Virus record (IMG/VR): IMGVR_UViG_3300023084_000009
Span: 1-64,000 of that record
DNA length: 64,000 nt
From: a virus
Direction: 5' to 3' (one strand)
This document shows, in pieces, positions 12,203 through 45,031 of the stretch (its first letter is position 1; each line of letters opens with the position of its first letter). The notes under the pieces are model-generated. The model saw only the letters and a list, made by a program, of their open reading frames with translations. It was not told where the DNA came from and did no database searches. Position numbers and translations under genes: made by a program.

Positions 12203-12287
12203 TAGGACGAGAGGGACTTGAACCCTCACGAGCGTAATGCTCAACAGATTTTAAGTCTGGTGTGTCTACCAATTCCACCACCGTCCC
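12203..12287 (-). tRNA. trnL: tRNA-Leu(UAA), CCA not encoded
   Basis: GGGACGG/TCGTCCT acceptor, GGAATTGGTAGAC D-arm, CT-TAA-AA anticodon loop, long variable arm, GGTTCAAGTCC T-arm. Confidence 0.95.
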
Positions 12288-12290
12288 AGG

Positions 12291-12363
12291 TGCTCCTTGC
12301 GTGGATCGAACACGCCTCAGGCGAATTATGAGTTCGCTGCATTCACCAGATTGCTAAAGGAGC
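12291..12363 (-). tRNA. tRNA with CAU anticodon (elongator Met or lysidine-type Ile2)
   Basis: GCTCCTT/AAGGAGC acceptor, GCGAA-CTCATAA-TTCGC anticodon arm, GTTCGATCC T-loop; paired 1:72 argues against an initiator. Confidence 0.9.
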
Positions 12364-12387
12364 ATTCGCTATTCGCAAATAGCGAAT
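12364..12387. repeat. 24-nt palindrome ATTCGCTATT-CGCA-AATAGCGAAT, copy 1
   Basis: Perfect 10-bp inverted repeat; identical to 44938-44961. Confidence 0.95.
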
Positions 12388-12458
12388 AGGAGTACTGGGA
12401 GTTGAACCCAGACTACCCCGTTATAAGCAGGGCGCTCTAACCATTAAGCTATACTCCC
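12387..12458 (-). tRNA. trnI: tRNA-Ile(UAU), CCA not encoded
   Basis: GGGAGTA/TACTCCT acceptor, TAGCTTAATGGTTAGAGC D-arm, CCCTG-CTTATAA-CGGGG anticodon arm, GGTTCAACTCC T-arm. Confidence 0.93.
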
Positions 12459-44212: not shown

Positions 44213-44241
44213 ATTATACACAAAAAAAGAGGGTTCGTCAA
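44213..44241 (-). promoter_or_regulatory. Sigma70 promoter embedded in a terminator
   Basis: TTGACG-N17-TATAAT. Confidence 0.75.
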
Positions 44242-44249
44242 GAACCCTC
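44222..44249 (-). terminator. Intrinsic terminator ending the riboswitch operon
   Basis: GAGGGTTC-TTGAC-GAACCCTC-T7. Confidence 0.9.
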
Positions 44250-44393
44250 AGATCTTAATAAGTTTTCAAACCATTCTCGCAGATGGATTCGGTAACATGA
44301 CCAATAGTTACATCCCCGATATTTGAGTTGATAACATGATGGTGGTCTGTTATCTCTATCCATATCATCGTAATGATACCGATAGTCTTCCAT
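44238..44393 (-). CDS. 51-aa peptide with YRG motif (not in ORF track)
   Basis: MEDYRYHYDDMDRDNRPPSCYQLKYRGCNYWSCYRIHLREWFENLLRSEGS; SD GAGG. Confidence 0.65.
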   Translation of the reverse strand: MEDYRYHYDDMDRDNRPPSCYQLKYRGCNYWSCYRIHLREWFENLLRSEGS

Positions 44394-44494: not shown

Positions 44495-44659
44495 TTACTT
44501 ATTGTAAGTGTGACCGCGATAGCAGAATGTTCCGTGAATTTCGTCAACACCTTGCTGACACTCATACTTAACACCACGATAGGATGTCATAGCAATTTGT
44601 GCGTCGTGCAGTGCTGATGCTTTCTGGATTTGCTTTTTGATCAGAGTGAGTGTGTTCAT
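44495..44659 (-). CDS. DUF4278 / downstream-peptide-type protein (two YRG motifs)
   Basis: MNTLTLIKKQI...SYRGVKYE...FCYRGHTYNK directly after the riboswitch. Confidence 0.8.
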   Translation of the reverse strand: MNTLTLIKKQIQKASALHDAQIAMTSYRGVKYECQQGVDEIHGTFCYRGHTYNK

Positions 44660-44705
44660 TTGTCGTACCTGAAATACTAGGGTGAGTTTTAAGTCTCCCG
44701 TTCCT

Positions 44706-44900
44706 TCAGTCGTTTGCGTCCTGTGCTTCAAAACACTTAGGGTCTGTATGTTCCATCCAATGGATGTAGATATCAGCCTTTTCAAAAGGAGTGAAGAGAG
44801 TTGTCTCATCTAATCCTTGCTTCAACCATTTCAAATCTTCACAGCGAAGATAATTCTCCACTGGGACATGACTAAAAAAGATGAGTGCTAATGATAACAT
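44706..44900 (-). CDS. 64-aa ORF nested inside the riboswitch
   Basis: ATG follows CGTTCATCCT; last codons (AQDAND-stop) are the aptamer 3' strand; hydrophobic N-terminus and two Cys. Confidence 0.7.
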   Translation of the reverse strand: MLSLALIFFSHVPVENYLRCEDLKWLKQGLDETTLFTPFEKADIYIHWMEHTDPKCFEAQDAND

Positions 44901-44937
44901 AGGATGAACGCTCCGTTCCGCGACTTACTTGCGTCCT

Positions 44938-44961
44938 ATTCGCTATTCGCAAATAGCGAAT
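44938..44961. repeat. 24-nt palindrome, copy 2
   Basis: Identical to 12364-12387. Confidence 0.95.
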
Positions 44962-44978
44962 GGGATGAACGTAAGGGT

Positions 44979-45007
44979 ATTATACCCCTAATGTGAGTAT
45001 TTATCAA
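44979..45007 (-). promoter_or_regulatory. Sigma70 promoter of the riboswitch operon (contains a late ATAAATA as well)
   Basis: TTGATA-N17-TATAAT ending 7 nt before the aptamer. Confidence 0.75.
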
Positions 45008-45015
45008 GTAAGTTC

Positions 45016-45031
45016 TGTAAAATACGATACA
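45016..45031. promoter_or_regulatory. NtcA-type box
   Basis: TGTA-AAATACGA-TACA (TGTA-N8-TACA). Confidence 0.6.

Follow-up and report, generated by a model that had tools for sequence, protein, structure and literature searches.

The locus and the pairing of its two cores

The window analysed here comprises 64,000 nucleotides (nt), i.e., positions 1 to 64,000 of the virus record IMGVR_UViG_3300023084_000009, a 94 kb IMG/VR virus that is ~44% complete, and both its gene content and its nearest relatives are those of T4-like cyanomyoviruses of the Kyanoviridae. On the minus strand, between positions 44971 and 44697, two copies of the glutamine-riboswitch core were found, whereby an open reading frame (ORF, 44900-44706) lies between both halves of the second copy. 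Read along this strand, the first copy consists of CGTTC (44971-44967), AT, a hairpin (44964-44935), ACGCAAGTA (44934-44926), AGTCG (44925-44921) and CG, which is followed by GAACG (44918-44914), GAG, CGTTC (44910-44906), AT, CCT and the ATG (44900-44898) of the ORF, and the 3' part is made up of CACAGG (to 44720), ACGCAAA (44719-44713), CGACT (44712-44708), GAAG (44707-44704) and GAACG (44703-44699). As judged from its letters, the whole region constitutes the leader of a short transcription unit of the phage, with a promoter at ~45007-44979 and a terminator at ~44469-44450, where an intrinsic-terminator-like hairpin (44469-44457) with a T run was predicted to end the unit. Taken as a whole, the locus is best explained, with a probability of roughly 0.65, by a nested double glutamine sensor that carries an embedded gene and acts through an ON platform on a downstream gene of the DUF4278 class.

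Relatives of the element were collected by BLAST against phage isolates, which yielded 415 records, the best of which cover 44986-44497 at 70-84% identity, and by a pattern scan of IMG/VR, which gave at least 119 loci, so that the counts given below hold among the matches listed. Isolates and IMG/VR loci were combined into a parsed set of 119 instances (116 distinct), each of which was split into the same fourteen segments; as the search pattern finds doublets only, all 119 instances are doublets and have no bearing on singlets. All 14 BLAST-located isolates examined, which come from many genera, possess the identical motif order, and this order is found again in ~100 IMG/VR contigs and in 17 isolate genomes, which represent many genera of the Kyanoviridae, hence the element is more than a chance arrangement. 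T4-like cyanophages that infect Synechococcus and Prochlorococcus commonly carry it. A motif scan of bacterial and archaeal genomes (at least 120 loci), which has no bearing on the cyanobacterial hosts, revealed among the loci listed chance matches in unrelated bacteria, none of them with the flanking motifs.

The outer core is closed by helix P1, whose 5' strand CGUUC (44967-44971) pairs with GAACG (44703-44699), as derived from reading and from a pair count in 60 sequences, where this closing helix of a three-way junction is 100% paired with one double change (CGUUU paired with AAACG in L023). Right after CGUUC-AU, CC and GG close the outer P2 hairpin of 30 nt (44935-44964), the length and sequence of which are free in relatives with the pairing kept, and outer and inner P2 both covary. 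The subsequent outer junction strand ACGCAAGUA (44926-44934) is invariant in the alignment of the isolates and comprises the CGC ligand-site strand and an AGUA loop-E half; within it, C44931 is the candidate long-range partner of G44698. The opposite side of the junction (44698-44707), assigned by reading and by the Rfam consensus, contains the junction segment J31 with GAAG as the other loop-E half, the outer P1 3' strand GAACG (44703-44699) and G44698. Loop-E halves AAGUA (44930-44926) and GAAG (44707-44704) flank helix P3 in the outer junction only. On the basis of its conserved letters, the outer three-way junction is a complete predicted aptamer of the glutamine-I type, built from P1, the P2 hairpin, ACGCAAGUA, P3 and GAAG.

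Helix P3 is formed by AGUCG (44921-44925) and CGACU (44708-44712), both assigned by covariation, whereby the U of the 3' strand opens the stop codon of the ORF. P3 is a long-range helix which encloses ~208 nt, forms no local hairpin and is common to both three-way junctions. In other phages it occurs as AGUCA/UGACU, GGUCG/CGACU, GGACGG/CCGCCC, GGAAGG/CCUUCC and in forms of 8 base pairs, the latter with U-A or A-U at position 8 and with position 3 recurrently mismatched (C.A or A.C). Pairs 1, 2, 4 and 5 are canonical in 116/116 sequences, with several pair types, and sliding one strand by a single position abolishes the pairing.

The inner core starts with the P1 hairpin GAACG-GAG-CGUUC (44906-44918), which was identified by compensatory changes, namely CAACG/CGUUG in 6 sequences and AAACG/CGUUU in 1 sequence, and whose loop holds G44913, the candidate long-range partner of C44716. 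The inner junction strand ACGCAAA (44713-44719) likewise contains the CGC ligand-site strand, here without a loop-E half, and is conserved in ORF-less relatives, i.e., also in doublets where it is non-coding. Read from its other end, P3 constitutes the third helix of the inner junction, and a loop caps the P1 of this junction; relative to the outer core, the inner one is hence circularly permuted. Its P2 was assigned by reading and covariation and is formed in the window by CCUAUGUU (44896-44903), which holds the start codon of the ORF (44900-44898), and AGCACAGG (44720-44727), so that the AUG is part of a helix with seven pairs and a single A.C mismatch. Among ORF-bearing inner P2 helices (n=84), pairs 1-3 are 100% canonical with the pair types CG, UA, UG and AU; for pair 3, shuffling lets 62/84 canonical pairs be expected, and the observed 84/84 was reached by 0/500 shuffles. 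Pair 4, which involves the A of AUG, is canonical in 80% as compared to a shuffled expectation of ~62% (52/84). ORF-bearing outer P2 helices show matched sets with start and stop codons in the helix (CUUAUG/CAUAAG, CUCAUG/CAUGAG and CCAAUG/CAUUGG, next to CCGA/UCGG and CCUA/UAGG), and such matched P2 changes 150-220 nt apart are beyond explanation by coding constraints.

The preliminary description of this locus, made from the letters of the window, is confirmed as to what it observed and supported in part as to its interpretation. The double glutamine-riboswitch-like element that it proposed has conserved blocks identical letter for letter to the Rfam Glutamine and Glutamine-II consensus, and its idea of an ORF filling a stem-loop (P2 of unit 2) agrees with the reading and with the covarying P2. 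The reading further confirms that the start codon is located in the P2 5' strand and that the last codons and the stop form the aptamer 3' half, and the pairing of AGUCG with CGACU, also put forward there, covaries across 116 distinct sequences. The cyanophage alignment to which it had looked indeed has P2 and AGUCG/CGACU covarying around an inner ORF that varies among phages. The hairpin between CC and GG, described as 24 nt long, was found to measure 26 nt (30 nt including CC/GG).

The embedded gene, the putatively regulated gene and their transcription unit

The gene embedded in the inner P2 loop (44706-44900, minus strand, stop codon TGA at 44708-44706) encodes a protein of 64 amino acids (aa) and was assigned by the ORF list, a profile match and the ratio of nonsynonymous to synonymous substitution (dN/dS). 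The profile match is to phrog_13397 (E=1.1e-41, residues 1-64 of 64); in the ORF family of the window (15 distinct sequences), median dN/dS is 0.20, codon position 3 accounts for 52% of the differences, and the other two frames are full of stops. Conservation of the inner ORF, on which the preliminary description had let its proposal depend, was hence found in the form of a coding signature and the phrog_13397 match. The last codons of the ORF, GAC GCA AAC GAC UGA, are at the same time J23, P3 and J31 of the aptamer. In long P2 loops, the AUG is located 2-5 nt (9 nt in two cases) into the P2 5' strand and the frame is open to the 3' strand in 115/116, the frames closing at P2, J23 or the P3 3' side. 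Inner ORFs stop at U-GA or U-AA, that is the last P3 base plus J31, in 80/84 cases, and for outer ORFs the stop is either within the 3' strand of P2 or the UAA of ACGCAAGUAAG. The inner P1 loop together with the preceding G reads GGAG, a Shine-Dalgarno (SD)-like motif 10 nt before the AUG of the ORF; the loop starts with GAG in 57/84 ORF-bearing units as compared to 0/32 ORF-less ones, which fits a putative ribosome-binding site (RBS) kept only where something is translated. From these signatures taken together, the embedded ORF is well supported as a predicted real gene.

The window belongs to the class with a hairpin in the outer and an ORF in the inner P2 (62/119 instances). Both P2 are hairpins in 25/119 instances, which include S-PM2 and P-TIM68, an ORF occupies both P2 in 23/119, and the outer P2 alone holds an ORF in 9/119. 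A hairpin of the form UCGCUAUU-loop-AAUAGCGA constitutes the inner P2 in S-PM2 (L015, 210-245) and in many IMG/VR doublets and is part of the outer P2 in the window (44935-44964); as it occupies different slots in the two, an exchange between both P2 slots is suggested.

The 64-aa protein possesses a hydrophobic N-terminus and two cysteines, Cys20 and Cys56, and these are the two invariant columns when 68 inner ORFs of several families are aligned. Embedded proteins of all classes measure 49-75 aa; they begin with a short hydrophobic stretch that is soon followed by one Cys, and a second Cys near the C-terminus is present in most of them, including all inner-slot ORFs. Several embedded-ORF families exist, e.g., one with ...KTKVEGEC... 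in the outer slot, and the C-terminal DAND, DAKAD or GRK of the proteins is dictated by the aptamer sequence. An AlphaFold2 model of the protein from the window consists of three helices (mean predicted local distance difference test score, pLDDT, 80); no match was obtained in Pfam, no usable one in the ESM Atlas, and none by Foldseek in the PDB. Its sequence homologs are all hypothetical proteins and stem from phages or metagenomes only.

The putatively regulated gene (44495-44659, minus strand) starts at 44659, thirty-eight nt past the sensor, and encodes 54 aa with two YRG motifs. It was classified by Pfam and PHROG profiles as DUF4278/IF17-like and as phrog_545, whereby the match to Pfam PF14105 (E=4e-4, 21.1 bits) is under the family cut-off of 25.3 and that to phrog_545 has E=1e-32. 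A YRG-motif gene follows downstream in 101/106 distinct spacers. As a candidate expression platform (44667-44674), UUUCAG (44674-44669) was identified, which overlaps the weak RBS AGGU (44670-44667) and is complementary to CUGAAG (44709-44704), i.e., to the end of the P3 3' strand and J31. This assignment is based on the minimum free energy (MFE) fold of the whole leader, which contains the CUGAAG/UUUCAG helix, and on duplex energies compared with shuffles: the platform duplex has a median of -6.6 vs -4.2 kcal/mol with shuffled spacers and is <= -6 in 83% vs 19%. In relatives, (C)UU(C/U)AG is found just before the GGAG of the YRG gene and is complementary to CU(G/A)AAG; a G in J31 faces C (30) or U (31) in the partner, and an A in J31 faces U (19) and C in 0 cases (Fisher p=3e-5, uncorrected for kinship).

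Further features were observed in this part of the unit. GUUCAU (44966-44971, outer P1 5' strand) is complementary to AUGAAC (44654-44659) at the DUF4278 start and is paired with it in the full-leader MFE fold, a pairing which is possible only with the MNT... peptide family. Between sensor and DUF4278 RBS, an extra module of ~30 nt is present in L004, L012, L014, L023, L026, L032 and L045 as well as in L049, L072, L081, L095, L103 and L121, which consists of AACGGAUC, a covarying hairpin with a GAAA-type loop, and (A/G)AA(G/A)GU(U/G). Behind the unit, between the terminators at 44469-44457 and 44249-44229, a 51-aa ORF (44238-44393, minus strand) carries a YRG motif (QLKYRGCNY), and no match to it was found in Pfam or PHROG.

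Metatranscriptome contigs from four runs, each of another study, map to the embedded ORF as well as to the two aptamer halves and the DUF4278 gene, one example being a contig of 146 nt that spans 44577-44722; they document presence in RNA libraries only. Some contigs skip 44719-44904 and have a short hairpin instead, and they derive from relatives without an ORF that were present in the same samples. Contig depth was near zero upstream of ~44972 and downstream of ~44478 in several RNA runs, which would fit the predicted start and terminator; it was not counted as support for either, as the contigs represent mixed phage populations and stem from RNA runs only.

Upstream of the sensor, a sigma-70-type promoter (44979-45007, minus strand) was recognised, in which TTGATA and TATAAT are separated by 17 nt (11/12 consensus matches). 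It ends 7 nt upstream of A44972, and with ~44972 as the presumed transcription start the RNA would begin 1 nt before CGUUC, a layout which is repeated in relatives. A GTA-N8-TAC palindrome resembling an NtcA box was read at 45017-45030 (minus strand); it occurs in 81/113 distinct upstream regions, mostly starting ~58-59 nt upstream of CGUUC. Its centre lies ~ -51.5 from the presumed start, the classical -41.5 being one helical turn closer, and it adjoins a good -35 box; NtcA-type boxes are already known from cyanophages. The -10 box is enclosed by an inverted repeat (GGGTAT/ATACCC, 44974-44990, minus strand), which is present in 97/113 upstream regions and whose arms covary among phages (GGTCTATAATAGACC, TGGTATAATAACCA, GTGTTAGTATTAACAC), and a late-promoter-like (C/A)TAAATA overlaps the -35 region in 57/113. 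Promoter-stem-loop cassettes have been described for T4-type phages, and the layout of the -10 palindrome resembles them. On the opposite strand, Rfam reports a match to the antitoxin small RNA SymR (44932-44997, plus strand; 35.7 bits, E=3.5e-5, gathering score 61), which is probably a chance hit, as it rests on the complement of the outer P2 hairpin and of the promoter palindrome and stays below the cut-off of 61.

The putative ligand site and alternative explanations

At the Rfam gathering score, the element of the window has no match; the sole matches of the window at this score are three consecutive transfer RNA genes (12203-12458, minus strand). With permissive settings, copy 1 (span ~44907-44974) aligns with Glutamine-II (RF01704) at 18.1 bits vs 33 and with Glutamine (RF01739) at 17.4 bits vs 35, the latter over 44910-44973. 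Relatives with shorter P2 hairpins reach 23-28.5 bits, under the cut-off, and the ORF-less element of P-TIM68 reaches 35.4 bits, just over it. An Rfam scan of phages listed glnA matches of 92-101 nt in S-PM2, P-TIM68, ACG-2014f and S-CREM1 and one of 235 nt in S-ShM2 (PMC9964418, Table S7). The S-ShM2 match spans the annotated coding sequence SShM2_194, hence the outer aptamer had earlier been matched across an ORF without comment.

In the structure of a glutamine-II riboswitch, the ligand resides in the CGUUC/GAACG helix, where it contacts the first C as well as the C of GAACG, and it also contacts the G in the CGC strand; the G preceding GAACG takes part in a G-over-A:U triple, and the last C of CGC pairs long-range with the G following GAACG (PMC6698751). 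All these site nucleotides are present in both cores of the window, with C44931 facing G44698 and C44716 facing G44913, and the ligand-site letters are conserved in the alignment of the isolates, which were found by BLAST and not by pattern. The candidate long-range C...G pair is invariant here and is thus without support by covariation. The 3' hairpin with a GGAACG loop, as typical for glutamine-II, has no flanking stem here, and the Rfam alignment forces a broken stem. From the retained site nucleotides we infer that each core may bind L-glutamine.

It may be asked whether the inner copy binds at all, or whether the outer junction alone senses and the inner copy acts as a structural mimic or competitor, with strand exchange between a tandem-like and the nested state. 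The inner core lacks both loop-E halves, and identical P1 strands would permit such an exchange in most phages. A further point comes from L051, where a second pattern match (minus strand of that locus) contains a 7-bp P3 (GAGCAUA/UAUGCUC), the inner GAACG-GUA-CGUUC hairpin and a P2 hairpin and has lost the inner AU-CC..GG-ACGCAAA; this variant may be a degenerate inner core. However, doublets without an ORF also keep inner AU, ACGCAAA, CG and GAACGG, in the absence of any coding constraint, and these letters include every residue of the glutamine-II binding site, glutamine-II itself being without loop E. Moreover, inner P1 changes such as CAACG/CGUUG abolish pairing with the outer strands, contrary to what an exchange would need. 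An outer-only sensor is considered unlikely.

Less probable still is an ordinary tandem pair, i.e., two independent riboswitches in series, in which the first CGUUC would pair with the middle GAACG and the second CGUUC with the last GAACG, AGUCG/CGACU then being a loop-loop contact at most. Glutamine doublets were described in the literature as tandem and 'pseudo-cooperative', a review counted 157 of them as such (PMC9481103), and in P-TIM68, Rfam 15 places the second CGUUC opposite the last GAACG, at a passing 35.4 bits. The tandem P1 of unit 1 can also form first during transcription. Both CGUUC and both GAACG are identical in 109/116 distinct sequences, in which both P1 pairings are equally possible, so that these sequences leave the choice between nested and tandem undecided. 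The decision comes from the sequences with varying P1, which are of three types: CGUUC...CAACG-CGUUG...GAACG (five sequences), CGUUU...CAACG-CGUUG...AAACG (one) and CGUUC...AAACG-CGUUU...GAACG (one). In all 7, the nested pairing keeps 10/10 pairs, whereas the tandem pairing is broken and keeps 8-9. Likewise, in a MAFFT alignment of 60 sequences, the nested reading has every cell paired at the outer P1 pair 7/331 (CG59, UA1) and the inner P1 pair 80/94 (GC53, CG6, AU1), and with the tandem reading, 7 and 6 cells have no pairing partner.

Further observations point in the same direction. In a tandem arrangement each unit would have half a loop-E motif and no P3 hairpin, whereas the nested outer unit represents the complete glutamine-I consensus, and P3 covaries between the two supposed units. 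Unguided RNAalifold on 23 ORF-less doublets predicted outer P1, outer P2, the inner P1 hairpin and inner P2, and when the ORF loop of the window was replaced by a tetraloop, ViennaRNA gave the nested fold as unconstrained MFE (-34.6 kcal/mol) as compared to -31.8 kcal/mol for the enforced tandem fold. The unconstrained MFE of the full 324-nt leader is devoid of the long-range P1, P3 and P2, which carries little weight at such RNA length, and a covariance model built from the 23 ORF-less doublets matches only 44864-44973 (28.3 bits), does not span the 184-nt insert and is hence silent on long-range pairs. The predicted fold, in which two cores are nested with a shared P3 and not placed in series, is thus well supported by the comparison. 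Of the two folds which the preliminary description had considered, the outer glutamine-I-type aptamer that encloses a permuted inner core has therefore stood, on covariation and energy, and the glutamine-II pseudoknot borrowing AGUCG has not, because the tandem P1 pairing required there is broken in the 7 sequences with varying P1.

That the conserved halves are a structured scaffold or the boundaries of a cassette for the swapping of small genes by recombination, as proposed for T4-type promoter-stem-loop cassettes, or else a protein or RNase site, and no metabolite sensor, draws on ORFs of several families in either P2, in both or in neither, on the UCGCUAUU...AAUAGCGA hairpin, which occurs in the outer unit here and again in the inner one of S-PM2, on the covarying promoter palindrome and on Rfam scores under the cut-off, but it is hardly probable, as recombination leaves unexplained the compensatory changes in P1, P2 and P3, the retention of exactly the ligand-site nucleotides and the constant link to DUF4278, a known target class of glutamine riboswitches, and exchange and sensing are mutually compatible anyway.

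The nested double sensor with its embedded gene and ON platform is the preferred reading, and several points weigh against it. The element of the window scores 17-18 bits against Rfam glutamine cut-offs of 33-35, glutamine binding by the phage representatives is proposed from sequence comparison, and the inner core is devoid of loop-E halves (AAA in place of AAGUA, CG in place of GAAG). Four of the 5 P1 pairs are invariant, so that the nested call depends on one pair position per helix and on 7 informative sequences in 3 distinct combinations. As both pairings are possible in most phages, an alternation is conceivable and the tandem pairing may form transiently. Most members of the ORF family of the window have a P2 closure of 3 pairs plus scattered ones. 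The search pattern fixed GACGCAAGTA and AACGG, whose invariance among the IMG/VR loci is hence partly given by construction. Finally, the RBS of the DUF4278 gene in the window is weak (AGGU), and translation of the embedded protein is put forward on sequence signatures.

According to the mechanism suggested for the nested double sensor, both cores would bind L-glutamine and the folding of one core should favour that of the other, since P3 is shared. The P3 3' strand together with J31 (ACUGAAGG) would alternatively pair with the ribosome-binding region of DUF4278, so that a ligand-stabilised folding of P3, loop E and outer P1 would release this RBS (ON), as in host gifB; this analogy suggests the ON direction for DUF4278. 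The folded sensor would hinder initiation at the embedded gene, whose AUG is situated in P2 and whose GGAG is situated in the inner P1 loop, and ribosomes on this gene would in turn have to unfold P2, P3 and outer P1. As the embedded stop codon sits in the anti-SD segment, a terminating ribosome would also open the anti-SD helix. We infer both the cooperativity and in which direction each of the two genes is controlled. A more far-reaching version, which is tentative, pictures a glutamine toggle: in the bound state the embedded Cys-Cys protein would be off and the RBS of the IF17-like gene free, and at low glutamine, ribosomes would keep the sensor unfolded, with translation serving as a kinetic gate, the shared helix making the response cooperative and the P2 loops serving as exchangeable gene slots.

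Aptamers are usually treated as non-coding and self-contained and as lying upstream of the genes they control, whereas here the junction doubles as last codons and stop, an aptamer helix contains the start codon, and two ligand sites share one helix. If glutamine binding holds true, this RNA would provide a natural example of gene translation and of ligand sensing for another gene physically excluding each other, and it would offer a compact, nested route to cooperative sensing. Among marine viruses, the T4-like cyanophages that infect Synechococcus and Prochlorococcus rank with the most abundant. As standard Rfam scans miss the element, and cyanophage genomes yielded only two glutamine aptamers in a published survey (PMC5473149), both the use of riboswitches by phages and an IF17-like interference with host nitrogen control may have been underestimated.

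Comparison with known systems

Glutamine riboswitches, their link to DUF4278/IF17, their occurrence as doublets and a few matches in cyanophages were known before. Glutamine was experimentally found to turn translation of gifB (DUF4278) ON, and the same was found for the leader of a Prochlorococcus DUF4278 gene (PMC6212724). With glutamine-I (RF01739), as represented by the Synechocystis gifB/IF17 leader (Klahn et al. 2018, PMC6212724), the outer junction shares the full consensus CGUUC-AU-CC..GG-ACG(C)AAGUA-P3-GAAG-GAACG; the gifB riboswitch likewise resides in a DUF4278 leader, and a segment adjoining its P1 3' strand can pair with the RBS region (ON). Differing from it, P3 forms no hairpin here and joins distant strands, with a second core and a 64-codon gene between them, the candidate long-range pair is C...G, as in glutamine-II, and not G...C, and the element is encoded by a phage.

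With glutamine-II (Downstream-peptide, RF01704, PMC6698751), the element shares the core letters CGUUCA, CC..GG, CGCA and GGAACGG. Glutamine-II is also without loop E, like the inner core here, and it is tied to short DUF4278 peptides of marine picocyanobacteria, i.e., the hosts of these phages. Unlike in glutamine-II, no 3' hairpin encloses GGAACG, so that the CGUUC/GAACG helix is no pseudoknot here and all helices are nested.

Tandem glutamine doublets and triplets (Weinberg 2010, PMC2864571; Sherlock 2022, PMC9481103) have two glutamine cores per leader, as is the case here. In the literature searched on tandem glutamine riboswitches, which did not include Ames and Breaker 2011, no mention was found of an ORF inside an aptamer; within the same coverage, the nested architecture with a shared P3, genes in P2 loops and the variation in four classes were not found either. 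Tandem glutamine riboswitches are described in this literature as serial with separate platforms, whereas here the cores are nested, share one helix and would act on one platform.

In the tandem glycine riboswitch, two homologous aptamers for one amino acid act on one platform and are coupled, whereby a sharper response becomes possible. Its aptamers lie side by side and communicate by tertiary contacts, whereas here one core is located within a helix of the other and the two share secondary structure. Group I introns, on the other hand, carry ORFs of homing endonucleases in their peripheral loops. As in these introns, a long coding insert is tolerated in an RNA loop and is variable or absent among relatives; the element described here differs in that the host RNA is a putative metabolite sensor, in that start and stop codons are part of helices and a junction, and in that the last four codons of the embedded gene are themselves conserved aptamer sequence.

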